Shown: positions 1,446-64,000 of the stretch, piece after piece | Layout of the letters: each line of letters begins with the position of its first letter | Numbering within the stretch: the first letter of the stretch is position 1 | Origin: a virus | Lineage: Duplodnaviria; Caudoviricetes | Virus record (IMG/VR): IMGVR_UViG_3300045002_000015 | Location: 8,781-72,780 of that record | Strand: one strand, 5' to 3' | Length of the DNA: 64,000 nt | Position numbers and translations under genes: made by a program | Notes under the pieces: model-generated | Told to the model about the DNA's origin: nothing | The model's input: only the letters and a program-made list of their open reading frames with translations | The model's database searches: none

Positions 1446-2051
1446 CTACCTTGCCAGCCGCAGCACCGACCACCATGCGACGAGGCCCATCAGCAGCCCG
1501 GAAAAGGCGAACAGCGTATCGGGATTGGCAATCAGCGTGGTGCCCGACATCAGGCACCAGAAAAAGCCGGACATCGCCAATCCGATGCAGCGCGGGATCA
1601 GGCTGCCGCGCTTGTCCTGCCGACTGTAAACCATCGCCAGGCCGAGGATTTTCATCGCGGCAGCGGCCAGGGCGAAGGCTGCCCAGGCCCGTTCATAGCC
1701 CGCCAGTCCGATCGCCGAGCGATAGGGCGCGTTGATACTGGTGAAATGATAGGGCGAGAGCCAGAGCACCGCCGTCGCCCAGAGCGAGGACAGCGATAGC
1801 AGTATCTCGATGACGACGATATCGGTCTGGCGCAGCAGATAGAGCGGCGCGCGCGCGATGCGCAGCAATTCATTGAGTTCGGCAATCTGGATCGACATGC
1901 GCTCAAGATCATGCGCCATGCGATCAAGCTCGCGGATCGTGCCGACGCGAAACTCGACAATGCCACGATCGCCGGTCTCGACGCGCGAGCGAAAGTCGGA
2001 GTCATCCGGGGTAATAGCGACTGGCCGGCGCGGCGGATCGGTCTCGCTCAA
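1446..2051 (-). CDS. Membrane protein, about 4 TM segments in C-terminal half
   Basis: Hydrophobic segments; tightly coupled to neighbours. Confidence 0.6.
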   Translation of the reverse strand: MSETDPPRRPVAITPDDSDFRSRVETGDRGIVEFRVGTIRELDRMAHDLERMSIQIAELNELLRIARAPLYLLRQTDIVVIEILLSLSSLWATAVLWLSPYHFTSINAPYRSAIGLAGYERAWAAFALAAAAMKILGLAMVYSRQDKRGSLIPRCIGLAMSGFFWCLMSGTTLIANPDTLFAFSGLLMGLVAWWSVLRLAR

Positions 2052-6318: not shown

Positions 6319-6504
6319 TTACATGGTGCGCGGGCGCGGCAGCGGCGCGCGGCACTTCGGGCAGATCACCCGCCGCGCGAGGCTTTCCTCGATCTCGGAT
6401 GCCGCACACTCGCTGACGTGGGAAAAGCCGCAGGTGCAGACCCAGAGGAAGCGCGCCTTTGGCTCCATCTGGCCCCCCCACGCATAGTCCTCGTCGAGCA
6501 TCAC
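6319..6504 (-). CDS. Small zinc-ribbon-like protein
   Basis: CTCG..C..CPKC; overlaps portal stop. Confidence 0.55.
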   Translation of the reverse strand: MMLDEDYAWGGQMEPKARFLWVCTCGFSHVSECAASEIEESLARRVICPKCRAPLPRPRTM

Positions 6505-8597
6505 TCGGTGCGCTCCTGGTGATTGGGCGCTTCGGTCTGGAGCACGTAGGGAAAGCCGGCCAGCCAGCGCTTGAACGCCGGGATGCTCATGGTCTCGACG
6601 CCGCCCATGCGGGTGATCCCGCTCTGGTCCGGCCAGGCGTTGATATAGGCGTTCACCGCCTCCTGCTGGGAGCCGAAATCCAGCATCACCTTGTGCTCGT
6701 CGAACCCGCCGTCGGGTTTCTGCTGACGGATGATATAGACCTCTTCGGCATCAGGGTTATCGCCGATGTAGCAGTCCATCTGCTCGGCGCCGCCCTCGGC
6801 GGAGCCGGTGCGCGAAATATAGCCGTAATGCGCCGGGATCGGCACGCCCTCGCTGAAGCGCCGCTGGCCGCGCTCGTATTCCAGCACGATATTCAGCCCA
6901 TGCCGATTGATCAGCGAAAGCTGGTCATTGGTCAGGATGGCTTTCACCTGCGCCGCCTTGCCGCGGTGGCCGAATAGTGCCGCCACCTGCTCGCCCTTGC
7001 CGTTCCGCCCGGCACCATTGAGCGGCATCGGCGCCGCCGTGGCGGCCGCGTTGCCGCGCAGCAATTCGATGACTTGGCGGTTCAGCGGCCGGATCGGTCG
7101 CCGCCGCATGGGCAGATCGGCATCGTCCTCTCGCTCGGGTCGCTCCGGCTCTCTCTCTGGAGCATGCGGCGGCGGGACACGTGCAGCCTCGATTCCCGGC
7201 GCCTCTCCGGGTTCCGCCATCGGATCGGGCGGATTATCCTCGGCCTGTTCAATCTCCTCGTCCGTAATGTTCGACCAGACGGCCGTCCATTTGGACTGTT
7301 CCTTTAATTCCTGCAACACGGTCTTACGCCCCACCATGCCGGCCTCGTACGCCTGAAGCGCGGCCTGGGTGATGGTGGAGGCGACCGAGGCTTTCTGGTC
7401 CTCGGCCAATTGCCAGAGCGGGCGGAAGGAAAAACCAAACCCCTCGGGCAATGGCTCGCCGAACTCGCTGCGGTGCAGCGCCTCGAACAGCGCGGTCACC
7501 GGGCCGCGCAGCTTGGCCTCCTGCTGACTGTTGATCATGTCATAATAGTTGCGAATGTCACTATCGCCGGTCGCGTTCAGACCGGCCGGGCTTTGGCCGA
7601 ACAGCCGCACCAGCGGTATCTGCGCCGCGCCGGAAAGCTGTTGGCCGAATTGCACCAGCACTTCGGAAAGACCGCCGAAATTGTACTGGTATGCCTCGAA
7701 CTTGTCGGTGGTATCCATGATGGTCATGCCCTCATTCTGCTGCATCAGCCGAATGAGACCCATCTGTTCCAGAAACGCCTGGTACGCCTTGCCGCCGCCG
7801 GAGATCAGATCGCGCAGGCCCTCGACGGCGTAAGTGCGCAGGTGCGCCTTGAACACCAGTTGCGCCGCGCCCATCGTGGTGCTGTCGAATGCGAACATGC
7901 GATCGAGCATCGGCTCGATGACCGACAGCCCCCAGAGATTTTCGGCGATCTTCTGCCAATAGGGTAGATCGACGCCCTCGAAACGCAGGCAGCGGGAGTG
8001 GTGCACGCGCATGCTCGGCACCGAGTGCGCATCGGAAACCACGTCGTAGTAACGCGGCAGGCCGAACGCCGGGCCGAGATCGCGGACCGTGTCCTCCAGC
8101 GAGGGATTGACCATCCAGCGGTCGAGCACCATCAGGCCCTGGAAGCGCCCGCGCCCGATCGCCTCGTAACGCAGCGGCTCGCTCGGATTGTGGCCGTCGA
8201 TCATCAGCACGCCGATCGCGCCACCATAGAGCCGCGCCCACTTGATGACGCCCTGCAAGCGCTGCCAAAGCTGCAACTCGATCCACTTCTCCATGAGCCG
8301 GGCCTCGTCCTCCGGCGTCATGTCGGTGGTGAGCATCACGCCAGCGCGTGTCATGTCCTCAGCCACCGAGTCGACGATCGCGCGCACCAGCCATGAGCCG
8401 CGATATGCCATTTCGAGCTGGTTATGACTGCGGCTGATCGGCGAGATTTGGTAGGACGAGCCAGCGAGGAGGTTACGCGCCCCGTAACCCAGATTGGCGG
8501 CGAAGTTGACCAGCGAGTCGGTGACAAACCGGCGCGGCGCCGACGAGCCGGCGGGCACGCGGATACGCGGCTTATCGCTGCTGCTCGAACCGCTCAA
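6501..8597 (-). CDS. Phage portal protein (DUF1073/anti-CBASS Acb1-like portal family) fused to a C-terminal inorganic-pyrophosphatase-like domain
   Basis: YRGSWLVRAIVDSVAEDMTRAG, WARLYGG, AAQIPLVRLFGQSPAGLNATGDSDIRNYYDMINSQQE; C-terminal HYGYISRT..MDCYIG..FDEHKVMLDF. Confidence 0.9.
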   Translation of the reverse strand: MSGSSSSDKPRIRVPAGSSAPRRFVTDSLVNFAANLGYGARNLLAGSSYQISPISRSHNQLEMAYRGSWLVRAIVDSVAEDMTRAGVMLTTDMTPEDEARLMEKWIELQLWQRLQGVIKWARLYGGAIGVLMIDGHNPSEPLRYEAIGRGRFQGLMVLDRWMVNPSLEDTVRDLGPAFGLPRYYDVVSDAHSVPSMRVHHSRCLRFEGVDLPYWQKIAENLWGLSVIEPMLDRMFAFDSTTMGAAQLVFKAHLRTYAVEGLRDLISGGGKAYQAFLEQMGLIRLMQQNEGMTIMDTTDKFEAYQYNFGGLSEVLVQFGQQLSGAAQIPLVRLFGQSPAGLNATGDSDIRNYYDMINSQQEAKLRGPVTALFEALHRSEFGEPLPEGFGFSFRPLWQLAEDQKASVASTITQAALQAYEAGMVGRKTVLQELKEQSKWTAVWSNITDEEIEQAEDNPPDPMAEPGEAPGIEAARVPPPHAPEREPERPEREDDADLPMRRRPIRPLNRQVIELLRGNAAATAAPMPLNGAGRNGKGEQVAALFGHRGKAAQVKAILTNDQLSLINRHGLNIVLEYERGQRRFSEGVPIPAHYGYISRTGSAEGGAEQMDCYIGDNPDAEEVYIIRQQKPDGGFDEHKVMLDFGSQQEAVNAYINAWPDQSGITRMGGVETMSIPAFKRWLAGFPYVLQTEAPNHQERTE

Positions 8598-52893: not shown

Positions 52894-53312
52894 CGGAGAA
52901 GGTCGTCCGCCTGGCTCCGCCACCGACGGGTGCCGAGGACCGGGCGCGGAGCGTATTGGCGGAGTGTGGCCTGCGGCCCGGTGATCCGCCATTCGAGGCG
53001 TATATGGCGACGGCGCGGTCGATTGATGCGGCGGCGCGGCTGGGGGATCGCATCGAGGCGCTTGCGGCGCGGCTGGAGAAGGCGGGTACGCCGTTTGATC
53101 CGCGCGCCTATGAGATCATGCGGGCGACGCTGCGCCGCGCCGTGGGGGCCTTGGGCTGGCGCCGTGTGGCGGCTGCGTTTGCGGTGGGTCTGGTTGCTGG
53201 CGGGATCAGCGCCGGCATGGCGGTTTATTGGTGGCGTGATGTGCAATTGTGGCGGCATTGCCAGAGCGTGTATGCACTGTCGGCCTGCGCCGAGATTGCC
53301 GGCCGGCTTTGA
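52890..53312 (+). CDS. Membrane-anchored protein (TraM/StbC position)
   Basis: C-terminal TM; ATGA overlap. Confidence 0.55.
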   Translation: MTEKVVRLAPPPTGAEDRARSVLAECGLRPGDPPFEAYMATARSIDAAARLGDRIEALAARLEKAGTPFDPRAYEIMRATLRRAVGALGWRRVAAAFAVGLVAGGISAGMAVYWWRDVQLWRHCQSVYALSACAEIAGRL

Positions 53313-53336
53313 CCTTGACGTTCCGAGGAGGAGTAG

Positions 53337-53501
53337 ATGACGGTTAATATTCCAGACGATCTCAGGAGTGCCGTGCATTTAGACGAGCCTGTCCCAGGCG
53401 GCACTGCATGGATCAGAAAATACCAGGACGGGAAGGCAAGCGAGCCAACGCCTCCTTTCATTACGGTTGCAATCCTCGCGAATACGTCCATCGCAAGATA
53501 G
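53337..53501 (+). CDS. Small hypothetical protein (54 aa)
   Basis: GAGGAGGAG RBS; below ORF-track cutoff. Confidence 0.45.
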   Translation: MTVNIPDDLRSAVHLDEPVPGGTAWIRKYQDGKASEPTPPFITVAILANTSIAR

Positions 53502-53558
53502 CACGATGTAGAGCCTCCGCCGCGTCTATTGTCGAGCTGACTACAACCAGCCACTCGG

Positions 53559-53792
53559 TCACGGTCCATTTGGAGGTGACGGCAGAGCCATCCAATGTGT
53601 TAGTTTCCAGTCGCAGTCTGAAAGACCTCCATGCTCGCTATTTCCTGACCATGCCGGCCCCGTTCCCTCCACCCAACAGAAGCGGCCGTTGAAGAACCCC
53701 ACGGTTGCCACGCACTCTCCATCGGTGGCTATAAGGACCGATCCATCTTTCGGGGCCGTCCCGATTGGCTGCCACCGGGGTTCGTCTGTCAT
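53559..53792 (-). CDS. DUF551-like phage protein
   Basis: WQPIGTAPKDG..THWMALPSPP. Confidence 0.8.
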   Translation of the reverse strand: MTDEPRWQPIGTAPKDGSVLIATDGECVATVGFFNGRFCWVEGTGPAWSGNSEHGGLSDCDWKLTHWMALPSPPNGP

Positions 53793-53902
53793 AGACCATT
53801 CTCCCAACTCAAGCCTTCTCCTCGCTCCAACGCTTCGCGCGCCCTTGTGGCGAACCAGGTCCGGTCAGGGTTGTCATTGTCATTGGTGGTTTTGTCGCTC
53901 AT
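53789..53902 (-). CDS. Cassette micro-ORF MSDKTT-NDNDNPDR (37 aa)
   Basis: Manual translation; overlaps both neighbours. Confidence 0.5.
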   Translation of the reverse strand: MSDKTTNDNDNPDRTWFATRAREALERGEGLSWENGL

Positions 53903-54084
53903 AGCGGCAGTCTCCGTCCATACAGCGCGCGCAAGAATTGGGACGCTGTCCTGCGCACCATTGCGTTGTCGTCCGCATCCTTGGGCTGGCCCATGATGCG
54001 CAGCAGCTCACGAACATAGCATTCGGCATGCCTCAATAACTCATCGTGGCCTGCAATAGCGGTCGTCTGGTTCTGATCAGCCAT
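53899..54084 (-). CDS. Cassette ORF MADQNQTT-AIAGH (cassette A, intact copy)
   Basis: Second copy at 57398-57572. Confidence 0.65.
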   Translation of the reverse strand: MADQNQTTAIAGHDELLRHAECYVRELLRIMGQPKDADDNAMVRRTASQFLRALYGRRLPL

Positions 54085-54298
54085 GATTTACCACTCCACA
54101 GTATCCTGCTTCCGGCCCGCGCCCCATACCGTCCATCGGCGTCCATGAAGGCAAGCACCGGGAGCACACCCAACCTTCTTCTGTTCCGTGCTCGCCGTAT
54201 TTGAACCAGCCGTAGGGGCCGCGCCCCAACCATCGACCACAAGCACAACGCGGGCGCATGATCGCCTCCCACCTGCGGGTCGTATTCCCCTTGCTCAT
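54077..54298 (-). CDS. Cassette ORF MSKGNTT-, Cys-rich
   Basis: CACG and CSRC pairs. Confidence 0.6.
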   Translation of the reverse strand: MSKGNTTRRWEAIMRPRCACGRWLGRGPYGWFKYGEHGTEEGWVCSRCLPSWTPMDGMGRGPEAGYCGVVNHG

Positions 54299-54606
54299 TG
54301 CCGACCTTCCACATGCGCTAAGAGGTCGCGTGCTTCTTGCATCAGTCGGGCCTCGTTTGCAGCGTGCCGCTCCTGGTGCCACGCGCCGCCAGGAAGTGCC
54401 ACGAAGCGCTTGACAAGGGAAAGTAGCTCCGGCGCAGCAGCAATCAGACGTGCAGTTCCAAGGTTGCCATCTGAGGCCATAAACGCGACGCGGTTGTCAG
54501 TCCCTGCGACGCAGACTTCGCTGGGGCTCCCGAGCTTGTCTCCCTGAAGCCATACGACTTCCCAGGGGCCGGGCAATGGGGTCGTTTGGGATTTACCGTC
54601 AGTCAC
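54295..54606 (-). CDS. Cassette ORF MTDGKSQTT-PLPGPW, phage hypothetical
   Basis: PGPW..ARLIAAAPELL motif typical of small phage proteins. Confidence 0.75.
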   Translation of the reverse strand: MTDGKSQTTPLPGPWEVVWLQGDKLGSPSEVCVAGTDNRVAFMASDGNLGTARLIAAAPELLSLVKRFVALPGGAWHQERHAANEARLMQEARDLLAHVEGRQ

Positions 54607-54802
54607 GTTTGCAGGCCTCCACCATTGAGGGAGCCATCACTACGTTGCGCATACGCTCGGCGATGCGCGCTGCTTCCTTGCTGCGCTCACGGGCTGGCAG
54701 ATACGCGATACCATCAACCGTGTGAGCCATGCGCACGACCCACGCACGGAGTGCAACTAGTTCTGACACCGCGTCTGGGGTCGTTTGGTTATAGTCAGCC
54801 AT
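54599..54802 (-). CDS. Cassette ORF MADYNQTT-
   Basis: Overlap-coupled ORF. Confidence 0.6.
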   Translation of the reverse strand: MADYNQTTPDAVSELVALRAWVVRMAHTVDGIAYLPARERSKEAARIAERMRNVVMAPSMVEACKRD

Positions 54803-54983
54803 GATCTACAATCCTCAACGAGCGTCGTAGGGCGCCGTCCATGACGCGCGAAAATCGAAGGTAATTCGGACACATCTCGGCACTGGTGCCCACGTAGCCT
54901 TGCAAGCAATCGGCGCGTTGTTCCATGCCACAGCCAGGGCATGGACTGGTCGTCTTGTCGTGCGGTTTCTGATGGTCACTCAT
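54795..54983 (-). CDS. Cassette ORF MSDHQKPHDKTT-, Cys-rich
   Basis: CPGC..C..C. Confidence 0.6.
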   Translation of the reverse strand: MSDHQKPHDKTTSPCPGCGMEQRADCLQGYVGTSAEMCPNYLRFSRVMDGALRRSLRIVDHG

Positions 54984-55284
54984 CAGCGAACATCCTGTAG
55001 CCGTTTGTGGGATGGCCGGCAGTGAACATGTCAGCAGACCGTTGAATGAAGGAGCGAGCTTCGTCCTCCGTCATCCACCCGGCATCGAAAGGCCCAGTGC
55101 CGAAGTCCTCTTCATAGGACCACTCAGGAGCGGCCACGATATCGTCGCCGCCGATATTCATGCGCCAGCTATCGTAGCGCGCCCGAAAGTAGAATGGTTT
55201 GCCATTTATGGTGCCCTCAGCCTGCACTGGGCAATTGCCACCTAACATCTGGATCACGACCTCGGCTGTCGTATCGTTAGTCAT
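54976..55284 (-). CDS. Cassette ORF MTNDTT-, hypothetical
   Basis: GGNCPVQAEGTINGKPFYFRARYDSW. Confidence 0.7.
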   Translation of the reverse strand: MTNDTTAEVVIQMLGGNCPVQAEGTINGKPFYFRARYDSWRMNIGGDDIVAAPEWSYEEDFGTGPFDAGWMTEDEARSFIQRSADMFTAGHPTNGYRMFADE

Positions 55285-55523
55285 CGGCTGATCTCCAATC
55301 GGGCCTGTCCAAAGCCGCAGCACTCGCACTGCCAGTAGAGCCATGCATCTGTCGGATCAGTAACTTCACACGTAGGGTGGGCCTCGATGCACGCGCCTTC
55401 CTCGAACCAGTCGAAGTAAATTGTTGAGACGCCACGATGCGCGCCGCTGATCTCGACCACGGAGCCGCGCACCGTCTGATAGCGCGCGGTCGTTTGGGAC
55501 GCGAGCTTCTGATCTGCACTCAT
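55281..55523 (-). CDS. Cassette ORF MSADQKLASQTT-
   Basis: Overlap-coupled; CECC near C-terminus. Confidence 0.6.
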   Translation of the reverse strand: MSADQKLASQTTARYQTVRGSVVEISGAHRGVSTIYFDWFEEGACIEAHPTCEVTDPTDAWLYWQCECCGFGQARLEISR

Positions 55524-55732
55524 GGGTCGCACCTCTTGCACAGGATCGGGACAGGTGCCCGATGCTCTTTGATATAATCAAACGGCTTTCGACACTGCTC
55601 GCATGAAGCACTTCCCCACGTCACGACTGGCGTTGAGCTTGTCCATGAAAACTGTCCGGGCAGAACGGCGGGGCTGAACACGACATTCCCCACGGTCGTC
55701 GGGTTATCGGCCATGGTCGTTTTGTCGCTCAT
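55520..55732 (-). CDS. Cassette ORF MSDKTT-MADNPTT-, Zn-ribbon-like
   Basis: Two tandem junctions; CEQC and CKRC. Confidence 0.6.
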   Translation of the reverse strand: MSDKTTMADNPTTVGNVVFSPAVLPGQFSWTSSTPVVTWGSASCEQCRKPFDYIKEHRAPVPILCKRCDP

Positions 55733-55998
55733 GCTGATTTTCCGCACTTGATTGTCTTTGCCTCTGGGTGATCGAACGCCATGTGGATTATGCTGCGCAG
55801 CTCACGTTTGATGGCATGATCCAGTTCGACGCCCTCGGTGTAGTCGATGTCGTCTCTCAGGTAGCCACCAAGGCTCAGCATACCGATCAGATCGGATGCC
55901 CAAACTGTCATCTGCTCGTCGTGACAGACAGCTTCGGCGGCAGCCTTCGGTCCGAGGATGACGGTCGTCTGGGAACTGTGCGGTTGATCGTCACTCAT
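55729..55998 (-). CDS. Cassette ORF MSDDQPHSSQTT-
   Basis: Overlap-coupled ORF. Confidence 0.6.
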   Translation of the reverse strand: MSDDQPHSSQTTVILGPKAAAEAVCHDEQMTVWASDLIGMLSLGGYLRDDIDYTEGVELDHAIKRELRSIIHMAFDHPEAKTIKCGKSA

Positions 55999-56173
55999 CG
56001 CTATCGTCTCCATCGTCCAGGCGCCCGCTGCCGCCACACTCGGGGCACTCGCCAGTAGAGCCGCAGAAGTCGCACCCCTCACCATCGCACGCTGGGCATT
56101 CACCAGTCTCAACGCACATAGGACACCGGCCGTCGAAGGCGGCCTCGTAATCCGGCCGCTTGCGCTCAGACAT
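55991..56173 (-). CDS. DnaJ-like Cys-rich zinc-finger miniprotein
   Basis: CPMC..CPACDG..CDFCG..CPECGG. Confidence 0.65.
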   Translation of the reverse strand: MSERKRPDYEAAFDGRCPMCVETGECPACDGEGCDFCGSTGECPECGGSGRLDDGDDSDE

Positions 56174-56246
56174 AGCCGAGGCCCTCGCATGTTGGGCATT
56201 TGGTGATGGTAATGGCGTGGTTGGTCTGAGGGACGTCATTGGCCAT
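56166..56246 (-). CDS. Cassette micro-ORF MANDVPQTN- (26 aa)
   Basis: CPTCEGLG; variant junction. Confidence 0.4.
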   Translation of the reverse strand: MANDVPQTNHAITITKCPTCEGLGYV

Positions 56247-56577
56247 TTGCAAGCTCCCGCACCTTGGCGTTGATAACTTCGCACATGGCGAAGCCGATTG
56301 ATTCAGCTTCACGAATGCGGCCACGAGAATAGGAGCCCTGCTTACCCTCTAAGTCGGTGTCAGCAACGTGTCGCAGAATTTCATCGTCGGCTGTCGCGGC
56401 GCACAGTTCCACAATCTCGTCGCGCACCCAACGCAGGAGATCGATAGCTTGCTGATTGGGTAAGTCGGACACGATCTTAGCTCGAGGTATGTCAATCTCT
56501 GTCAGTGTCGCAGTCACTACTATAACTGACCGGTCAGGGTTGTCATTGTCATTGGCCGTCTGGGAATTGTCATCCAT
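56236..56577 (-). CDS. Cassette ORF MDDNSQTA-NDNDNPDR
   Basis: Shares 26 bp with 53861-53886. Confidence 0.6.
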   Translation of the reverse strand: MDDNSQTANDNDNPDRSVIVVTATLTEIDIPRAKIVSDLPNQQAIDLLRWVRDEIVELCAATADDEILRHVADTDLEGKQGSYSRGRIREAESIGFAMCEVINAKVRELANGQ

Positions 56578-56776
56578 GATTTATCACTCTCCTAGTCCAG
56601 GCAATTGTCGCGGCCACCATGGCTGTGCAATAGAGAAAAGCAAAGAAGCAGACCGCATAAGTCAGCGGCCAACACGGGTAAGCGATGAGCGAGGCCATTG
56701 ACGCGATGATTCCGATACCAGAGCCGATACACACGACGGTCGCATTGTACTCTGTAGCGGTCGTTTTGTCGCTCAT
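56570..56776 (-). CDS. Cassette ORF MSDKTT-, 2-TM membrane protein
   Basis: Two hydrophobic segments. Confidence 0.6.
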   Translation of the reverse strand: MSDKTTATEYNATVVCIGSGIGIIASMASLIAYPCWPLTYAVCFFAFLYCTAMVAATIAWTRRVINHG

Positions 56777-56922
56777 GGTTCATCGTCCTCTATCACTCTA
56801 CGGCAGTGCGGGCAGCGGTCTCCGACCAAATCCGGATCACCTTCCCATCCGCAGCTTTCACAGACCCATGAGCCGCCCTTATGCTCCCAAGGGTCAGGCG
56901 CCTCGGTCGTTTCATCCTTCAT
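56773..56922 (-). CDS. Cassette ORF MKDETT-EAPDPW, Zn-ribbon (cassette B copy 1)
   Basis: CESC and CPHC; second copy at 57252-57403. Confidence 0.65.
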   Translation of the reverse strand: MKDETTEAPDPWEHKGGSWVCESCGWEGDPDLVGDRCPHCRRVIEDDEP

Positions 56923-57118
56923 CTGGTTGATTCTCCCTATTCCATTCCTCAATGGTCTTTGCCTCATTGAAGTAGGCGTGATGGCGCTTATCAATGATGT
57001 CGCGAACACGGTCGGCGAATGGATTGTCCCTGGCGTCCTCAGCAAAGAATGTCGCGTCAAAGATTTCTCGCACGGTTTCCTTCCACGCTGACTCGACAGT
57101 CGTTTTGTTCTCAGACAT
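56912..57118 (-). CDS. Cassette ORF MSENKTT-
   Basis: Overlap-coupled ORF. Confidence 0.6.
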   Translation of the reverse strand: MSENKTTVESAWKETVREIFDATFFAEDARDNPFADRVRDIIDKRHHAYFNEAKTIEEWNRENQPDEG

Positions 57119-57269
57119 CCTGAAGCCCCTTCAACCTATTCGCCTTTACCTCACACGCATGCGCTTCCGCCGAAGCAACGAGCGCTTGCTGACGTAACTG
57201 CACAGCGCGTTCGTAAAGGTAATCAGCGTAGTCTCGCCGTAGGTCAGCTTCGGTCGTCTTGTCGCTCAT
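57111..57269 (-). CDS. Cassette ORF MSDKTT-EADLRR (52 aa)
   Basis: Manual translation; helical. Confidence 0.55.
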   Translation of the reverse strand: MSDKTTEADLRRDYADYLYERAVQLRQQALVASAEAHACEVKANRLKGLQDV

Positions 57270-57415
57270 GGTTCATCGTCCTCTATCTCTCTGTGACAGC
57301 ACGGGCAGCGGTCTCCGACCAAATCCGGATCACCTTCCCATCCGCAGCTTTCACAGACCCATGAGCCGCCCTTATGCTCCCAAGGGTCAGGCGCCTCGGT
57401 GGTTTTGTCGCTCAT
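57266..57415 (-). CDS. Cassette ORF MSDKTT-EAPDPW, Zn-ribbon (cassette B copy 2)
   Basis: Same body as 56773-56922 with a different leader. Confidence 0.65.
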   Translation of the reverse strand: MSDKTTEAPDPWEHKGGSWVCESCGWEGDPDLVGDRCPCCHREIEDDEP

Positions 57416-57587
57416 AGCGGCAGTCTCCGTCCATACAGCGCGCGCAAGAATTGGGACGCTGTCCTGCGCACCACTGCGTTGTCGTCCGCATCCTTGGGCT
57501 GGCCCATGATGCGTAGCATATCGCGAACGTAGTCTTCGGCGTGCCTCAATAATGGCCTGCAATAGCGGTCGTTTGCTCGTCGCTCAC
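57412..57587 (-). pseudogene. Frameshifted copy of cassette A (MSDEQTT-AIAGH, 7-bp deletion)
   Basis: CGATGAG missing relative to 53899-54084, giving an early TGA. Confidence 0.7.
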
Positions 57588-57778
57588 TTGATTCTCCCAC
57601 ATCGCATGCAGCGTTCCTCGTATGGGTTGATCTGTTCCCAATCGTGGCCACCGAAGTCTTCTGCGCACAATCGCTCTCGTGTAGCCTGTCGCATCCCGAA
57701 GCCCGTGAAATGTCGCGGCAGGTTCTGTTGGTACTGATGGATGATCGCAGGTCCGGTGGTTGAGTCCTGGTTAGCCAT
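57584..57778 (-). CDS. Cassette ORF MANQDSTT-
   Basis: C..GHDW..CMRCG. Confidence 0.6.
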   Translation of the reverse strand: MANQDSTTGPAIIHQYQQNLPRHFTGFGMRQATRERLCAEDFGGHDWEQINPYEERCMRCGRIK

Positions 57779-57956
57779 GATTTGCAATCTCCCTGATCTT
57801 GGCCTCCGCTCGAATGAGCGCATTCCACTGCGCCTTGGTCCCGCAGGTTTGCCTCCTCCATTCGCTGAAGTCGCGGGCATTTCCGTCCGTCATCTGGCTA
57901 ATAGCTTCCAGAGCAGCTTGCGCCTCATCCCGCGTAAGTGTCGTTTTCTCGCTCAC
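57771..57956 (-). CDS. Cassette ORF MSEKTT-
   Basis: Helical; overlap-coupled. Confidence 0.6.
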   Translation of the reverse strand: MSEKTTLTRDEAQAALEAISQMTDGNARDFSEWRRQTCGTKAQWNALIRAEAKIREIANHG

Positions 57957-58135
57957 GACATGATCCTCCTAAGTGCGGCTTCGGCCCTCTTCAGACACTC
58001 ACACTCAGCGCCGCATCGACAGGGATCGGGGCATCTGCGGTTCTTGGCTATCTGATCGCGAGCCGATAAGACCCAGCCAATTTCCTCCGCAGTGAAAGCG
58101 GTCGTTCGGTTGCTGCGGTCCTGATGGTCACTCAT
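57953..58135 (-). CDS. Cassette ORF MSDHQDRSNRTT-, Cys cluster
   Basis: CPDPCRCGAECEC. Confidence 0.6.
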   Translation of the reverse strand: MSDHQDRSNRTTAFTAEEIGWVLSARDQIAKNRRCPDPCRCGAECECLKRAEAALRRIMS

Positions 58136-58304
58136 GGTATTTGCTCCACCTCCAATCCGCATATTCTATGTCGGCTGCCGTTGGTTCCCTGCACTCCCAG
58201 ACCGGCATCAATCGGTAAAGTTCCCACACCACAAACATACTGCGGTGTGTGGCTAGAGTGATATGAGACGGGAAATCGTCAGCGGTCGTTTTGTGATCAG
58301 TCAT
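58128..58304 (-). CDS. Cassette ORF MTDHKTT-
   Basis: Overlap-coupled ORF. Confidence 0.55.
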   Translation of the reverse strand: MTDHKTTADDFPSHITLATHRSMFVVWELYRLMPVWECREPTAADIEYADWRWSKYHE

Positions 58305-58491
58305 TCGGATATTCCTCTCTGGCTTCCAGAGCCTCATCGTCCATTCTGTCCTGCAAGCGAGCCAACGCCTCGTGCATCCGTCGTGATGCCTCGCGCTGCT
58401 GGTAAGTCATGCCGTCCCTCTCGATTGCCTGAAGCATCTCAGCCAATTCGCAAAGAGCCTCATCTCGCAGTGTCGTCTCAGCTTTGCTCAT
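58297..58491 (-). CDS. Cassette ORF MSKAETT- (first of array)
   Basis: Start overlaps end of the resolvase-fold gene. Confidence 0.6.
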   Translation of the reverse strand: MSKAETTLRDEALCELAEMLQAIERDGMTYQQREASRRMHEALARLQDRMDDEALEAREEYPND

Positions 58492-59152
58492 TCTGAATCT
58501 CCTTTCGTTTGGCTCTCGCCCGCTTCATTCCAGCCCTATGGGCGATTGCCCATCGTCTAGTGGGTAAGTGCTCTCTAGCTGTCTTCCAGGCCATCGGCTG
58601 CCAGTGGCCACGCTTGGTCTTACGGCCAGCACGGTGCAACAGTTCCTGCAACGTGAACTTGGGGTTTCCCCAGTCCTTCTCAATCAGCTTCACACGGCGC
58701 TTGGTATCGGCCAGCTTCTGTTCGGCAGTAACCTCCCAGCCGGCCCGGCCGGGCTGAACGGCGCCGCGCCGCTTGTCGGCCACGAAGTCTTCCTGGGCTT
58801 GCGCAATTTCGTCGGCACCAGCATCCGGTCCGATCTTCAGGCCGGTATTCAGTGCCACCAGCGTAGCGCCCCGGGCCTTCGCGGCAGCAAGGCAGCGCCC
58901 CAGGTCGCGCAGGTCGAACGCCAGCAGCCCCCAGCAGGCAAAGCGGATCGTCTCATCCCTCGACTGGCGGCCTGTTTGCGCCATCATCTTTCCGCGCCAA
59001 TAAAGCGCCGCAGCGTCCTTCCGCTTACGCTCACCCGGCCTTAGCTCATCCTGGTACTCGGCCTTGGCTTTGCCAGCGGCATCAAGCAACTCCCGCTGGG
59101 CCTCCCAGGTCCAGACCTTGAGGATATTGCTGAGATAGTTGATCTCGGGCAC
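58478..59152 (-). CDS. Divergent serine-recombinase (resolvase)-fold protein with basic C-terminal DNA-binding region
   Basis: Resolvase-like layout (NY..AQRELL..EYQD..R..DETIRFACWGLLAFDLRDL..KARGATLVALNTG); canonical YxRxS and DRLGR not conserved. Confidence 0.6.
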   Translation of the reverse strand: MPEINYLSNILKVWTWEAQRELLDAAGKAKAEYQDELRPGERKRKDAAALYWRGKMMAQTGRQSRDETIRFACWGLLAFDLRDLGRCLAAAKARGATLVALNTGLKIGPDAGADEIAQAQEDFVADKRRGAVQPGRAGWEVTAEQKLADTKRRVKLIEKDWGNPKFTLQELLHRAGRKTKRGHWQPMAWKTAREHLPTRRWAIAHRAGMKRARAKRKEIQNEQS

Positions 59153-59185
59153 TGTGAAAATCTGCTCCGGTCGGCGCTTTTCTGA

Positions 59186-59215
59186 TTGACAAGGTAGCAG
59201 CCTGGGGCATATAAA
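59186..59215 (+). promoter_or_regulatory. Strong sigma70-like promoter facing the right-hand array
   Basis: TTGACA (59186)-N18-TATAAA (59210). Confidence 0.75.
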
Positions 59216-59225
59216 TCAAGCACCA

Positions 59226-59450
59226 ATGACGGACAAGCGAGTGAAACCCCTAGCCCTGGAGGCTCCTATGGCTTCTACTTCCTCTCTTCTCTCCGTCTCT
59301 TTCGCTGACGCCAACGGCGTCTGGTCCGTCTCTCGCTACTTCAACACCATCCGCGCCGCCCGTCGGTGGGCGAAGTGGCTCAGCGGCCATTCTTATGTTC
59401 GTGAGGTGGCGATCCATCGAGGCGGCCAAGGAGGCGAGCGGGTCTCCTGA
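59226..59450 (+). CDS. Small hypothetical protein (likely start 59268)
   Basis: GGAGG RBS before MASTSS. Confidence 0.6.
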   Translation: MTDKRVKPLALEAPMASTSSLLSVSFADANGVWSVSRYFNTIRAARRWAKWLSGHSYVREVAIHRGGQGGERVS

Positions 59451-59497
59451 CCCGCTTTATCTGACAAACGATCAAACCCCTGTATCGGAGGAAACCT

Positions 59498-59683
59498 ATG
59501 AGCGAAGCATTCACACGCAACGATCTGATCGGTCTAGCCGAGTTGTTCAGGCTTGCCGTCCAGACCAATCCTCACGTCATCCCAGGTGTTGTGCCGGTGG
59601 CTCTGTCGCCCGATGACTGCGTGAGGATCGCAGACATTCTCACTGCTGAGATTGAGCGCCGTTGGATGGCGGTCGAGGCGTAG
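59498..59683 (+). CDS. Small hypothetical protein
   Basis: GGAGG RBS after junction. Confidence 0.65.
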   Translation: MSEAFTRNDLIGLAELFRLAVQTNPHVIPGVVPVALSPDDCVRIADILTAEIERRWMAVEA

Positions 59684-59712
59684 GTAGAAAACCCCTGTAT
59701 CGGAGCGGAGCT

Positions 59713-60021
59713 ATGGCCGAAGCTAGCGATCTCTTACGGCGCGTACAAGAGAAGAAAGCAGCGCTGACTGTCGTGACAGACCCCAAGGCCGGCGAGCAGT
59801 GGGGCGAGATGTCGTGGCCTGGCGTATTAGACCAGCCAGCCAGAACTGGACGGCAGATGCTTGAATTCGTGGCGCAGCAATATGGTAAGGTTGGGTGGGA
59901 GATAGGCGACCTCAAGGCGTTCTGGGACGCGTCTCCAACCGGAGAATTGTCCCACGTGTTCGAGTCGTATCAAACGGCATGTATGATCTACGAAGCAGAG
60001 CGTGAGTTGGAAAGCCACTAA
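59713..60021 (+). CDS. Hypothetical protein
   Basis: GGAG RBS after junction; ends TAAACCCC. Confidence 0.65.
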   Translation: MAEASDLLRRVQEKKAALTVVTDPKAGEQWGEMSWPGVLDQPARTGRQMLEFVAQQYGKVGWEIGDLKAFWDASPTGELSHVFESYQTACMIYEAERELESH

Positions 60022-60043
60022 ACCCCGATCTAGGGACGCGAAG

Positions 60044-60256
60044 ATGGTACGGAGCATTGTGATGAGCGGACTGGGGATCACAGTAGGAGCGCATGCCTCG
60101 GAAAGGCGTTCCGCGCAGTTCCTCGCAGAGCTTGAGGAAGTTGAGGGCATGACGCCTGGGCAGCTTCGCGTCGAGTGCCAGAAGATGGCCAAACAAGGCG
60201 GCTTCTCCGGCATGGTCGCGACGTTCGCGCTGGACCGCTACGACAACAAGCGCTGA
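60044..60256 (+). CDS. Small hypothetical protein
   Basis: Bounded by junctions at 60020 and 60256. Confidence 0.55.
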   Translation: MVRSIVMSGLGITVGAHASERRSAQFLAELEEVEGMTPGQLRVECQKMAKQGGFSGMVATFALDRYDNKR

Positions 60257-60264
60257 AACCCCCG

Positions 60265-60504
60265 ATGAGTCCTGAGCGCCTACGCGAGCTGATTGCGATG
60301 ACCGGCCTAGAGCGGCGGGAACTTGCCCGCCTGCTCGGCTATGGCTCCGACAACAGCCTACGCCAGTGCGAGCGAGGGAAGGCGACGCTTCCAGCCGACA
60401 AAGCGAAGTGGCTGGAGGGCTACGCTAAGCTGCGCGCAAGGCATGCGGAACAGATCGCCAAGTGGCTCCAGAAAAATCCGCCGCCCAGCGAAAATAACGG
60501 TTGA
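60265..60504 (+). CDS. XRE-like HTH protein
   Basis: LERRELARLLGYGSDNSLRQCERGKATLP; similar to 14944-15240. Confidence 0.75.
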   Translation: MSPERLRELIAMTGLERRELARLLGYGSDNSLRQCERGKATLPADKAKWLEGYAKLRARHAEQIAKWLQKNPPPSENNG

Positions 60505-60531
60505 CTTCTATGCGCGATGCGCGCATATACT
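60501..60531 (+). promoter_or_regulatory. Internal promoter with palindromic operator
   Basis: TTGACT..TATACT flanking TATGCGC-N5-GCGCATA. Confidence 0.6.
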
Positions 60532-60555
60532 AGGGGCATCAAGACGGAGACGGAC

Positions 60556-60810
60556 ATGGCTATCAATCTTCCGAAGTGGACGGACTGCACCACAGAGCAG
60601 CACATTCGTGCTGGCGCATATCGCGCTGCGGCTGAGCGGCTCGCCATGCTGCACCGGGAATACGTCAGTGCATGCGAGCGTTGGCAGACCGAATGCGCGG
60701 CAGATGGAATCGATCCAGAGCTTGAGCGCGATTACTATGAAATCGATAAGCTGGCTATGCGAAGGAACGCCGCAGAAGCGAACGCAATCGGCTTCGCCAG
60801 CGCTTACTAA
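60556..60810 (+). CDS. Hypothetical helical protein
   Basis: GGAG RBS; ends TAAACCCC. Confidence 0.65.
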   Translation: MAINLPKWTDCTTEQHIRAGAYRAAAERLAMLHREYVSACERWQTECAADGIDPELERDYYEIDKLAMRRNAAEANAIGFASAY

Positions 60811-60852
60811 ACCCCAGTTACCTTCCGGCGCCTCGCGGATCAGGGGCGGAGA

Positions 60853-61110
60853 ATGGAGATGACGAACCATCCGAACCGAAAGAAACCGGTACCTCCTGCG
60901 GTTAAGCGTTACATGCAGGAGTTTGGAGAGACGGAGGCCGATTTCAGGAAATGGTTGGGTATTCAAAGGGATGCCCACAAAGCCATTGCCGACTGCTCTG
61001 ACGCCAATGGTAACCGAATAGGGCTTGTGACATGGGTTGCATACAAAATGGGATGTTCGGCCGCAGCCGCAAAGAGCGCACTAGCATGGGCCGGAATCAT
61101 CGAGACATAA
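60853..61110 (+). CDS. Hypothetical protein with TNHPNR N-terminus
   Basis: Ends TAACCCCC. Confidence 0.65.
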   Translation: MEMTNHPNRKKPVPPAVKRYMQEFGETEADFRKWLGIQRDAHKAIADCSDANGNRIGLVTWVAYKMGCSAAAAKSALAWAGIIET

Positions 61111-61131
61111 CCCCCGAAAGGAAGCCCTCAG

Positions 61132-61392
61132 ATGACCTACGTAGTTCGCGAGATCGAAACCGGGTTCATCATCGTCGGATCACAGGGCGCGCTACTACGC
61201 GATGGTGGTGCTGGCATGAACGGTGAACCGCTGGTCTGGCGTGAGCGCGCTAGGGCAGAGGCCAAGGCTGAGTGGATGAACCGCGTAGTTGCATCGGCCT
61301 TGATGACTAGATCAGAGCGTAGAACACTGCGGAACGAGATCGCCACGAAACATGGCATAAGTGCCGACACTGCACGTGGCCTTCTGAACTGA
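61132..61392 (+). CDS. Hypothetical protein
   Basis: AAGGA RBS after junction. Confidence 0.65.
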   Translation: MTYVVREIETGFIIVGSQGALLRDGGAGMNGEPLVWRERARAEAKAEWMNRVVASALMTRSERRTLRNEIATKHGISADTARGLLN

Positions 61393-61418
61393 CATAAACC
61401 CGATCTTGGAGAAAAGCC

Positions 61419-61598
61419 ATGTGCGGCCCAAGCATCACCCAACTCCTCGCCCGCGAAGGCATCACGCACGAGCGAGATTCCTGGACTGCCAAGGACCATT
61501 GCCACCGCCTTTACGCCAACGGCGAATACATCGGACGCTACGATGCCGCTCAGGCCGTCAAGTTTCTCGAAGCGTTGACCCACGAGAAGCTAACATAA
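61419..61598 (+). CDS. Small hypothetical protein (59 aa)
   Basis: Manual translation MCGPSITQLL..; GGAG RBS; ends TAACCCC. Confidence 0.6.
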   Translation: MCGPSITQLLAREGITHERDSWTAKDHCHRLYANGEYIGRYDAAQAVKFLEALTHEKLT

Positions 61599-61612
61599 CC
61601 CCGGAGAACGAC

Positions 61613-61816
61613 GTGCATCACATCGCCAAGCAGGACGACAAGCTCTACATCTACTCGATGGGCAAACGCCTTCGGGTTACCGCCGTTTTCTCTGACGATG
61701 AATCGGCCAACGCACACATGGCGCGCCATTCCGACGATGCGGTGATCGCCTGCTTTGGCCAGTTCGTATTCCTGGCTAATAAGTATGACCACGGCGAACG
61801 CGCCGCAGTGTCCTGA
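61613..61816 (+). CDS. Small hypothetical protein
   Basis: GGAG RBS plus GTG right after junction. Confidence 0.6.
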   Translation: MHHIAKQDDKLYIYSMGKRLRVTAVFSDDESANAHMARHSDDAVIACFGQFVFLANKYDHGERAAVS

Positions 61817-61838
61817 ACCCCAGTCTAGGAACCCAACA

Positions 61839-62039
61839 ATGACTTTGGATGAAAAGTTTGGCGAGAAGTCTGGTATGACAAAAGAACGGAGATACGAACA
61901 AGTACTGAAGCAAATCGCGGAGGGCAGTGATGCTGTGCCGGCACATGCCTGGAGGTACTTGGCGCACACCACGCTGGGTGAGTTCGGCGTTTCCTCCGAG
62001 TACCGAGAGGATGAGCGCCACCCATGGCCCGAAGACTAA
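61839..62039 (+). CDS. Small hypothetical protein
   Basis: AGGA RBS; ends TAAAACCCC. Confidence 0.6.
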   Translation: MTLDEKFGEKSGMTKERRYEQVLKQIAEGSDAVPAHAWRYLAHTTLGEFGVSSEYREDERHPWPED

Positions 62040-62203
62040 AACCCCGTCCAGCTTACACATACTGCATCTACGAGAAGTCTGAGACCGACTATCGCGTGAT
62101 GCACGGCAACAAGATCGTCAGCCGACACAGCACCGAACAAGAGGCCCGTGCCGCGCTTAAACGCGATTTTTTCAAAGAAACACTAAACCCCGGAGTAGAC
62201 TGA
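62024..62203 (+). CDS. Small hypothetical protein (59 aa) spanning two junctions
   Basis: MARRLKP-RPAYTYCIYEK..ETLNP-GVD. Confidence 0.5.
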   Translation: MARRLKPRPAYTYCIYEKSETDYRVMHGNKIVSRHSTEQEARAALKRDFFKETLNPGVD

Positions 62204-62454
62204 TGCAGTACGAGCAAACAGCGCGCCGGATGAGTGCGATGGACATTCACCCCAGCCTACGCATCACAGACACAGGTCCGGCGATCGGCACCTATCGAGG
62301 CAGGAAGATTGCCGAGTGGATCGACAGGGCCGGCGAGCGGTTCCTGTATGATCGTCCAGCGGTGGAAGATGCTGACGGTGGCGTGCCGCTGTCACAACTC
62401 AGGTCGGACGAGTTCGTGGTCGCTCCCGGCCTGATCTATCGACGTGCGACATAA
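62203..62454 (+). CDS. Hypothetical protein
   Basis: GGAG RBS; ends TAACCCCC. Confidence 0.65.
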   Translation: MQYEQTARRMSAMDIHPSLRITDTGPAIGTYRGRKIAEWIDRAGERFLYDRPAVEDADGGVPLSQLRSDEFVVAPGLIYRRAT

Positions 62455-62474
62455 CCCCCGAAAGGACCTATGCC

Positions 62475-62687
62475 ATGACCGTCACGATCGAGATAATCGG
62501 TCCTCGCGATGAGATCGTTGAGATGGGCCACTTTATATCGGACGCTATAGGGCTCAACATGGATCGGGCGCGGCGCCCTAGACCTCTACTGCGCCGTCTG
62601 ATTGATTCATGGAAGCCTGATGTCTTAGCGTACCCCATGATCGGCAGCGAGGGTCACGGCGCGGCGTTCAAGTACCGGAGCAAATAA
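62475..62687 (+). CDS. Small hypothetical protein
   Basis: AAGGA RBS; ends TAAACCCCC. Confidence 0.6.
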   Translation: MTVTIEIIGPRDEIVEMGHFISDAIGLNMDRARRPRPLLRRLIDSWKPDVLAYPMIGSEGHGAAFKYRSK

Positions 62688-62705
62688 ACCCCCGAGAGGA
62701 AGGAT

Positions 62706-62888
62706 ATGTTAGCTTATGTGATTCTAATGTGCCTCGGCGGTAGCCAGTGCATTCCGTTCCCTATATCGTTCCAGGATTTGGCAACGTGTCAGGCTAATGT
62801 CAGCTACTTGAATGGCTCGGCGCTCAGTCAGGCAGTGACCTCTCGTTGTGAACCGTGGAGCCTCGTTCCTTCGGACAAGAAGTCCTAA
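62706..62888 (+). CDS. Small exported Cys-containing protein
   Basis: Hydrophobic N-terminus, four Cys. Confidence 0.6.
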   Translation: MLAYVILMCLGGSQCIPFPISFQDLATCQANVSYLNGSALSQAVTSRCEPWSLVPSDKKS

Positions 62889-62911
62889 ATCCCCGGATAA
62901 AAAGGTCGCCT

Positions 62912-63037
62912 ATGCGTGATCCATTCCAGCAGTTCGTCACTTTTGGCCTTCCTGCAAGAAATGGGCGCGCGATCTGGATCACGCCAAGGCAGCGTTTGCG
63001 TATCACTGCCACAATGACCCAGCCTGGAAAGCGTTAG
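62912..63037 (+). CDS. Micro-ORF (41 aa)
   Basis: AAGG RBS after junction. Confidence 0.4.
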   Translation: MRDPFQQFVTFGLPARNGRAIWITPRQRLRITATMTQPGKR

Positions 63038-63074
63038 GCGAAGCCGAAATCAATAGAAGGATCGACGTGCTAAC

Positions 63075-63323
63075 ATGATAAAGGCAACAGGCAAAGGGCC
63101 GTGGGGACGTAACACTCTGTTCGTCGGCCTGTCGTTCGGCAACCTCGATAAGTTTCGCGCGGCCCCATGCGACACCTACATTCGCATCGACGGCAAGGAA
63201 GTCGGGCTACCGTTTGATGTGATGATCTTCTCTGGCGAGACAGAAGCACAAATGGCGGACATGATGGCCAGTGGCTTCGGGCCTAACACGAAGGTCCACA
63301 TCAGCGACCGATCGAAGAACTGA
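63075..63323 (+). CDS. Hypothetical protein
   Basis: LFVGLSFGNLDKFR; AAGGA RBS. Confidence 0.65.
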   Translation: MIKATGKGPWGRNTLFVGLSFGNLDKFRAAPCDTYIRIDGKEVGLPFDVMIFSGETEAQMADMMASGFGPNTKVHISDRSKN

Positions 63324-63357
63324 GACGAAACCCCACTCAAGGGAGGCCATTACACCC

Positions 63358-63540
63358 ATGCTGACTGACGAAGAAATTGATCTGCTAAGAAAGCGAGCAG
63401 AAAAGGCGGTGAAGTCAAAGTGGCAAGTTCATGTGGATGCCGATGACTTGCTTGACTTAATTTGGCTGGCACAAGGCGGCGATGCCTACAACAGTCTAGC
63501 GCCCTACCACGGCTGTCCGATTGCGCAACGAGTCCGATAA
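63358..63540 (+). CDS. Small hypothetical protein
   Basis: GGGAGG RBS after junction. Confidence 0.55.
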   Translation: MLTDEEIDLLRKRAEKAVKSKWQVHVDADDLLDLIWLAQGGDAYNSLAPYHGCPIAQRVR

Positions 63541-63602
63541 CCTAAACCCCGGTAGGGGGCGGCATAAAGATTAATGAGTAGCCCGAGAGAGGCAAAAAAC
63601 AC

Positions 63603-63785
63603 ATGATTGAGGACACGGGAATGGTCGGAGTGAGTGAAGAAGCTATCGCTAATATCCTGAATGACCCGGAGATTTGGACCGCCTTAAAGGCGATACCAGC
63701 CGATCAGAGGGCAGAGTTGTGGCGTGATCTGGGTGTGCCCGACGATAAAATCGCCGAGATGCAAGTAGAAATCGAACAGCACTAA
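63603..63785 (+). CDS. Small acidic hypothetical protein
   Basis: GAGG RBS; ends TAAACCCCC. Confidence 0.6.
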   Translation: MIEDTGMVGVSEEAIANILNDPEIWTALKAIPADQRAELWRDLGVPDDKIAEMQVEIEQH

Positions 63786-63794
63786 ACCCCCGTC

Positions 63795-63989
63795 ATGACG
63801 CGGATTACCGCAAAGGCGGTGTTGGCAAAGATGATGGAAGAGCTTAGCGAGAACGATTGGCCATCGGAGCAGACTTGGACGGATGCATGTCGAGTCCTGG
63901 GCCGTCGGGTGCCGAAACCTATTAGGCCGGGTAAGACAGTAAGCGTCTATCGCGCCGTTGATGGCGCGCCTCGCAAGTTCGAACCGTAA
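63795..63989 (+). CDS. Small hypothetical protein
   Basis: Bounded by junctions; ends TAACCCC. Confidence 0.6.
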   Translation: MTRITAKAVLAKMMEELSENDWPSEQTWTDACRVLGRRVPKPIRPGKTVSVYRAVDGAPRKFEP

Positions 63990-64000
63990 CCCCGGATGAG

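Follow-up and report, generated by a model that had tools for sequence, protein, structure and literature searches.

A resolvase-like protein lacking key catalytic residues at the junction of two divergent tiny-gene arrays in a soil phage

The stretch of DNA analysed here (the window, 64,000 nucleotides) covers bases 8781-72780 of a 72,780-base IMG/VR virus record, IMGVR_UViG_3300045002_000015, and carries, at the junction of two divergent arrays of tiny genes, a gene for a 224-residue protein that we call the hub. We found that the hub belongs to a new and sizeable family of resolvase-derived pseudo-enzymes, which holds a fixed place in a new, two-armed cassette module; to our knowledge, exapted, catalytically dead serine recombinases have not been described as a family. 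The reading we favour, for which the case seems to us evenly balanced, is that the protein is a catalytically dead, dimeric resolvase derivative regulating both arrays from a common control region, and a role of the protein in cassette exchange appears rather unlikely. In a preliminary description of the region two options had been offered, a new non-canonical recombinase and a catalytically dead resolvase taken over as a regulator or as a synapsis factor; our results favour the latter and make the former unlikely.

The hub gene occupies 58478-59152 on the minus strand, as delineated from its open reading frame, and it heads the left array as had been noticed before. Its GTG start and the surrounding context TTTTCACAGTG are conserved among the relatives; in two of them (L008 and L009) the ATG called as the start lies 21 nt inside the gene, downstream of this GTG. 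The AlphaFold model of the 224-aa protein had a predicted local distance difference test (pLDDT) score of 77.8. In comparisons with VIA-align, residues 1-130 were superposed on Sin (5c31) over 114 residues with a Z of 11.1 and a root-mean-square deviation of 3.0. All of the top 14 chains were serine-recombinase catalytic domains, among them a streptococcal resolvase-family recombinase, the Tn3 and gamma-delta resolvases and the phiC31, TP901-1 and Bxb1 integrases, and the next unrelated fold reached a Z of 5.8. The best PDB match found by Foldseek was gamma-delta resolvase (1.2e-3), and its BFVD matches were integrases and resolvases (4e-5). The serine-recombinase fold, proposed earlier from the pattern of secondary structure, was thus recovered in all three comparisons. 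The hub protein gave no match to PF00239 in Pfam even at an E-value of 10, and no match in Pfam, PHROGs, NCBIfam or the PDB sequences even when searched as a family profile. Eight of 58 family members matched PF00239 weakly (best 1.3e-4), and the Protein Atlas returned unnamed clusters only, plus one resolvase cluster at 0.88.

The register of the catalytic positions was fixed by aligning the family with E. coli PinE (hhalign), where LDRLGR faces W-G75-L76-L-A-F79 of the hub and where Q19 and D35 of the hub align with the Q and D of the recombinase. The earlier readings of the YxRxS motif as NYLSNI and of DRLGR as GLLAF were both right in this alignment. The hub accordingly has S8 in place of R8, I10 in place of S10, G75 in place of D67, L76 in place of R68 and F79 in place of R71, and it keeps Y6, Q19 and D35, the last being Asp36 of resolvase. 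The loss of Ser10 and of the arginines was also evident from residue counts over 139 near-full-length members: position 10 is mainly I, L or G, with Ser outside the four commonest residues, position 8 is Ser in 100 members, and Arg8 is kept in only 16, which form a subgroup with the motif Y-x-R-N-G-V. Across the same set Y6 is invariant, Q19 is essentially invariant and D35 is present in 135 members; the newly conserved basic residues are R53, R62 and R94. In Tn3 resolvase, Olorunniji and Stark found Y6, R8, S10, D36, R68 and R71 to be the six residues crucial for catalysis, and binding to the DNA site was not lost when they were mutated (PMC2794168). Four of these six are replaced in the hub, and therefore the canonical resolvase chemistry is excluded. 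Judged by the catalytic features in its sequence, the hub protein is not a serine recombinase.

The hub was predicted to form a homodimer, with a score of 0.47 as compared to 0.10 for the best control; of the 30 proteins solved as same-chain pairs 20 attained the mark used for dimers, and of the 23 solved as single chains 1 did. Run-to-run contact agreement was at least 0% and the pLDDT of the partner was at least 76. The predicted interface comprises residues 81-93 and 107-124, that is helices D and E. However, the dimer score may simply mirror the likeness to resolvases, because resolvase dimers have already been solved. The C-terminal domain (residues 130-224, 95 residues) is helical, with a model pLDDT of 85.7, and its consensus, T..LL..AG-(turn)-..TA..HLG.R, is a pattern like that of the resolvase helix-turn-helix (HTH). 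This pattern suggests that the domain is probably an HTH.

The family comprises at least 226 clusters at an E-value of 1e-3 or better, as found in a profile search of 1.84 billion representatives, which gives a lower bound on its size. Nearly all members are of about 200-230 aa, and all are named 'hypothetical protein' except one 62-aa fragment, called transposase by its source. A tblastn comparison with 50,697 phage records and 72,556 plasmids gave no match to the hub protein, and pattern scans of IMG/VR and GTDB genomes gave no confirmed relative. Twelve genomic contexts of relatives were examined, ten as DNA loci (L002, L003, L004, L005, L006, L008, L009, L010, L011 and L012) and two as contigs without DNA. 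The hub gene was transcribed away from a tiny-gene array directly upstream in 12 of 12 contexts, and in most of them it also stood at the head of a co-directional run of tiny genes. The expectation that relatives would be flanked by mini-gene arrays punctuated by motifs thus held throughout, including relatives of about 25-35% identity. Punctuation also kept its polarity, A(A)ACCCC preceding the gene starts in the divergent array and Thr-Thr leaders lying in frame in the co-directional one, and this was so in L012 too, the hub of which belongs to the Arg8 subgroup. The neighbours in the relatives are phage-like (tail fibre, lysozyme, SSB, methylases, GcrA, GapR and DUF551), and a coupling protein was found in the context of one relative. 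The cassette content is wholly different between loci, the window sharing with the relatives only the hub and one zinc-ribbon cassette. We also noticed, in the divergent array of L006, a gene with an Acb2/Tad1 hairpin domain (L006:194-439, minus strand), the domain of the anti-CBASS/anti-Thoeris sponge family.

The two arrays of the window differ in their punctuation. The left array (53559-58491, minus strand), described from motif counts, duplicates and joints, consists of tiny overlapping genes with an in-frame Thr-Thr motif (ACGACC) 4-12 codons in. Its first leader, MSKAETT with the Thr-Thr motif (58471-58491, minus strand), extends over the 3' end of the hub gene, with a joint to a foreign contig at 58471; the 3' end of the hub gene likewise bears the first leader in L002, L008, L009, L010 and L012. 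The right array (59244-64000, plus strand), described from motif counts and joints, consists of tiny genes each placed after (T)AAACCCC, and runs off the end of the record. The motif scan placed its first AAACCCC at 59244-59250 (plus strand), where the preliminary description had put the first junction, 8 nt before GGAGG and in the 5' leader of the first gene of the array; this gene, seen as an open reading frame at 59268-59450 (plus strand), encodes 60 aa from the ATG after GGAGG. Since no gene lies upstream and the motif is in a 5' leader, this copy is start-associated as much as it is a junction. The equivalent site reads AAACACC or AAACCCC in L008, L009 and L003. The window contains 16 copies of AAACCCC where 4.2 are expected, 12 of them on the plus strand between 59244 and 63790, and 14 copies of ARACGACC where 3.0 are expected, 12 of them on the minus strand of the left array, where they always encode Thr-Thr in frame. 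The junctions are thus 7-9-nt motifs placed either directly before the ribosome-binding site (RBS) and start codon or inside coding sequence. Dyad symmetry is absent from both AAACCCC and CARACGACC, and the junctions showed no inverted repeats. The motifs vary among the loci of the family (AAACCCC vs CACCTAAC), and in L006 the start-associated motif CACCTAACGGAG replaces AAACCCC alongside a related hub. A Pfam search of 19 array genes gave one weak HTH_31 match only (E 6.7e-5), at 60265-60504 on the plus strand, which may mark a second small regulator within the right array. The cassette at 55991-56171 (minus strand) has repeated CxxC/CxxCxG motifs, resembling a DnaJ-type zinc finger, and no Pfam match.

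The cassettes proved to be mobile in nature, with breakpoints on the motifs, which supports the earlier description of the two runs as true cassette arrays. Two cassettes are duplicated inside the left array at 93-94% identity, with the limits of the duplication on the Thr-Thr motif. One of the duplicated copies (copy 2 of AIAGH...YGRRLPL, 57552-57600, minus strand) is broken, as its leader reading frame stops after 13 codons and the body resumes in a different frame; its counterpart at 53899-54084 is intact. Other soil and rhizosphere contigs carry the same cassettes (those of window positions 53300-64000), many of them 95-99% identical, in different orders. At the joints, 22 of 30 ends fell within 3 nt of an ACGACC or AAACCCC motif, as compared to 5-6% expected, and two more fell on variants of the motifs. 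The letters common to both sides of the joints numbered 5-10 nt, far under the assembler word of 31, which makes assembly chimeras unlikely. One foreign contig carries the cassettes 58471..., 57568-57754 and 54948-55272 in reversed order, then 1088 unlike letters in the place of the hub region of the window (unlike meaning without a match at the 88% cut-off), and then 59689-60027, the matched cassettes differing from the window by 1-2 letters in about 330. Such a run of unlike letters amid near-identical cassettes suggests, at the level of sequence, that cassettes move between diverged backbones.

The space between the hub gene and the right array holds two candidate promoters. The rightward one, TTGACA-N18-TATAAA (59186-59215, plus strand), was recognised in the sequence, is conserved in six loci and would serve the AAACCCC array. 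Its -35 hexamer lies at 59186-59191 and its -10 hexamer, after a spacer of 18 nt, at 59210-59215; the distance to the GTG of the hub gene is 34 nt. The divergent promoter of the preliminary description is therefore present at that distance, although the word 'strong' used for it is unproven. It was missed by the consensus promoter scanner because its -10 ends in A and not in T; this scanner called no site in 58300-59600, and one terminator-like site only was found there. The six-locus alignment also revealed a leftward candidate, absent from the earlier account, TTGATT-N17-TACCTT (59191-59219, minus strand), for the hub gene and the Thr-Thr array. Its hexamers, TTGATT at 59214-59219 and TACCTT at 59191-59196, are sigma-70-like, and the two promoters overlap completely, each -35 abutting the -10 of the other. 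In the distant L004, L006, L011 and L012 a promoter of the form TTGAC(A/C/T)-N17/18-TAnnT(T/C) is likewise found upstream of the hub gene. In the six loci the TGTCAA and TATA columns are invariant and the spacer is variable.

Between the -10 of the hub promoter and the start codon, 4 nt from the rightward -35, lies an imperfect dyad made of the inverted blocks GAAAATC-N13-GCTTTTC (59156-59182), the arms of which are invariant in the six loci around a variable spacer; we regard it as a candidate operator. The invariant blocks of the control region read TGTCAAT.A.AAAAGC and GA.TTTC, on either side of that spacer. An RNA hairpin formed from the conserved blocks of the 5' leader was considered and rejected, as the z-scores in the six loci ranged from -0.6 to +1.0. 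A search of the 11-mers of the hub region across the record gave one notable repeat, the 15-mer ATCAGAAAAGCGCCG of the conserved control block, with an exact copy inside a gene for a 440-aa capsid-like protein (record 3706-3720, or window -5074 to -5060). About 0.02 such copies are expected, and the second copy is probably due to chance. Directly upstream of the hub promoter in L004 (9770-9850) and L005 (200-280), a putative tRNA-like sequence was noticed on the opposite strand.

These features can be put together as follows. The hub would be a degenerate small serine recombinase in which the catalytic-domain fold, the dimer interface on helix E and probably a C-terminal HTH are preserved, and which is unable to cut DNA in the way resolvases do. 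For a protein of this make-up, encoded beside a conserved control region, DNA-binding regulation is the simplest role. The dimer would most likely bind the control region of about 70 bp with its overlapping, back-to-back sigma-70-type promoters, and the bound protein would set the transcription of both arrays and of its own gene. Binding at the dyad at 59156-59182 would lead to auto-repression, and possibly the rightward promoter would be closed as well. The pattern that we expect, as to the sign of regulation, is an early burst of expression on entry, probably followed by shut-off. Tn3 or gamma-delta resolvase acts as a repressor at res, and the hub would retain this half of the activity and lack the recombining one. 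At the conserved junctions, cassettes could then be exchanged by general recombination, in the manner of the T4-type PeSL cassettes (PMC2839356), or by replication slippage, and the PDDEXK-like exonuclease (DUF3799) encoded by the element could contribute to it.

Several observations weigh against such a purely regulatory role. DNA binding by the hub protein is something we only infer, and the fold search with the C-terminal domain was weak, the best match being RpnA-S (Z 5.3), with HTH domains of TetR and AraC at a Z of about 4. The invariance of Y6, Q19 and D36 (resolvase numbering) is unexpected in a pure regulator, because Y6 and D36 serve catalysis and not binding in Tn3 resolvase, and the subgroup of 16 members even retains Arg8. 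Moreover, the gene and the two junction motifs stay linked, in fixed polarity, down to about 25-35% identity. Taken with the lack of any other site-specific recombinase detected in the record, this linkage hints at a role beyond the control of transcription. The record is, however, only about 85% complete, and thus a recombinase could still exist in the absent part.

Such a role could be that of a non-catalytic exchange factor, the dead resolvase binding or pairing the junction motifs or the entry sites of the arrays while phage or host recombination or replication enzymes swap the cassettes, so that the hub would be the specificity subunit of a cassette-capture system. Serine recombinases naturally synapse their sites as dimers of dimers, and the breakpoints on motifs (22 of 30 joint ends), the near-identical cassettes flanking 1088 unlike letters at the place of the hub region in one foreign contig, the fixed polarity in which distant relatives keep the hub together with an AACCCC array and a Thr-Thr array, and the fact that no other site-specific recombinase was found in the record would all fit. 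We nevertheless hold this to be a fairly improbable account. The motifs are short, have no dyad symmetry and differ between the two arrays, and L006 combines its other motif with a related hub. The Thr-Thr motif is also kept by synonymous codons (ACTACA, ACGACA), which indicates a protein-level or translational constraint, and the T4-type PeSL cassettes shuffle without a dedicated protein (PMC2839356). If the protein did take part in exchange, it may be a component dedicated to specificity or synapsis in an unrecognised phage cassette-capture system, or even the atypical catalyst of such a system, an idea that we rate as unlikely. The same doubtful standing applies to its two further elements, namely that incoming gene bodies would be exchanged at 7-9-nt core motifs within two promoter-driven arrays, and that one of the arrays would fuse these bodies in frame to a resident RBS, start codon and Thr-Thr leader.

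A catalytic role could be conceived with Ser8 or Tyr6 as the nucleophile and R42/K43, R53 and R62 as the basic residues, the hub cutting and rejoining the junction motifs as a non-canonical recombinase. Cassette mobility is real, Y6, Q19 and D35 are kept and S8 is found in 100 of the 139 members, next to the new conserved basic residues R53, R62 and R94. But Ser10, Arg68 and Arg71 are absent family-wide, S8 is replaced by Arg in 16 members, so that no Ser/Thr is universal, and no dyad-symmetric site surrounds the motifs; also, we know of no precedent. This option is, in our view, very improbable. Alternatively, the hub may act mainly by protein-protein contacts and not on the control region or the junctions, either as an early host-takeover or anti-defence protein that shares the operon, or as an accessory to replication or partition in a plasmid-like prophage. 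The hub gene opens an operon of early-type tiny genes, the array of one relative includes the Acb2/Tad1-hairpin gene, and the record has Prim-Pol and VapE genes and no integrase that we could find. However, the hub stays beside conserved non-coding blocks in all contexts while the cassettes turn over completely, and all members known to us that combine the resolvase architecture with a basic C-terminal domain are directed at DNA. We therefore regard action through protein contacts as quite unlikely, and return to regulation from the control region as the favoured role of the hub.

The nearest known relatives by structure are the small serine recombinases (Tn3/gamma-delta, Sin, Hin/Gin/Pin), with which the hub shares the fold of the catalytic domain, the size of about 200 aa, the predicted helix-E dimer, the probable C-terminal HTH and the retained Y6, Q19 and D36. 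It differs from them in the replacement of Ser10, Arg8, Asp67, Arg68 and Arg71 and in the missing PF00239 match, and no res-, gix- or hix-like dyad sites were seen. TnpR represses tnpA and tnpR at res, and the hub gene, like tnpR, lies beside a divergent promoter region that is a candidate target for binding.

Integrons combine the tyrosine recombinase IntI with attI, Pc and attC cassettes. The likeness to integrons drawn in the preliminary description stands as far as the divergent geometry is concerned, since a recombinase-like gene is divergent from a promoter reading into co-oriented, largely promoterless cassettes, and these vary between relatives and move between backbones. It does not extend to the recombinase, which is not of the integron type, nor to the sites: neither a tyrosine nor a canonical serine recombinase was detected in the record, and there are no attC sites, the imperfect inverted repeats folding as hairpins at the ends of integron cassettes, nor sites like them. 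Unlike in integrons, there are two arrays here, each with its own 7-9-nt motif, and in one of them the junction lies inside coding sequence, so that each body is fused in frame to the resident leader. The element is, besides, a phage and not a chromosomal or transposon platform.

Among phage systems, the T4-type PeSL elements, each a promoter plus a terminator stem-loop, are associated with small non-essential early ORFs (open reading frames) in a hyperplastic region that recombines between motif copies without a dedicated recombinase (PMC2839356, PMC4122927). The arrays described here resemble them in having small, early-type ORFs split by a repeated motif, with shuffling breakpoints on the motif; they differ in that the motifs are of 7-9 nt, contain neither promoter nor terminator, and are accompanied by a conserved resolvase-derived gene always at the array heads. 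Cluster K mycobacteriophages have a start-associated short sequence just upstream of the RBS and start of many small genes (PMC3203893). AAACCCC takes the same position but is a different sequence; recombination breakpoints fall on it, and it goes with one of the arrays and with the hub gene.

The record was classed as linear and about 85% complete (CheckV). It encodes a phage portal and large terminase, together with VapE, Prim-Pol and a DNA methylase, and, in the same record, a full VirB-type secretion set, a coupling protein (VirD4) and a TrwC relaxase. No PF00589 (tyrosine recombinase) match was obtained in the 72.8-kb record, whereas the control genomes all matched, and PF00239 or another canonical serine recombinase was found nowhere in it. 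As read from gene content, the presence of phage head and packaging, replication and conjugation genes, with an integrase of neither family detected, suggests a plasmid-like, possibly conjugative phage. The closest type IV secretion proteins are from Alphaproteobacteria, at only about 35% identity, and the public runs containing the sequence are soil and rhizosphere metagenomes, with no RNA run among them. At about 53.5 kb the G+C content drops from about 0.66 to about 0.57 and stays low up to the end of the window; this low-GC block is made up of the two divergent tiny-gene arrays and holds the 224-aa ORF where they meet. We considered whether the low-GC arrays could be a separate inserted element and rejected this, because in L003 an array of the same kind abuts a homologue of the 631-aa structural gene of the window (2048-3943). 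The arrays as merely a conjugative leading region were rejected as well, as most relatives are in phage contexts and have no type IV secretion genes on the stretch seen.

In soil phages and phage-plasmids, the hub identifies the place from which two hypervariable arrays of tiny early genes are controlled, and array regions of this type are where anti-defence genes are being found, an Acb2/Tad1-like gene being present in one relative. If the hub is a regulator only, it offers a handle to find and switch on such arrays. If it takes part in exchange, the module would be a new viral gene-capture system and, should the capture-system idea hold, a functional integron analogue built on a serine-recombinase scaffold without its serine. 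In both cases, metagenomes can conveniently be mined for such arrays with the hub gene as the marker. Outside the arrays, we noticed that the portal protein of the element (6501-8597, minus strand) carries a fused InPase (inorganic pyrophosphatase-like) domain.

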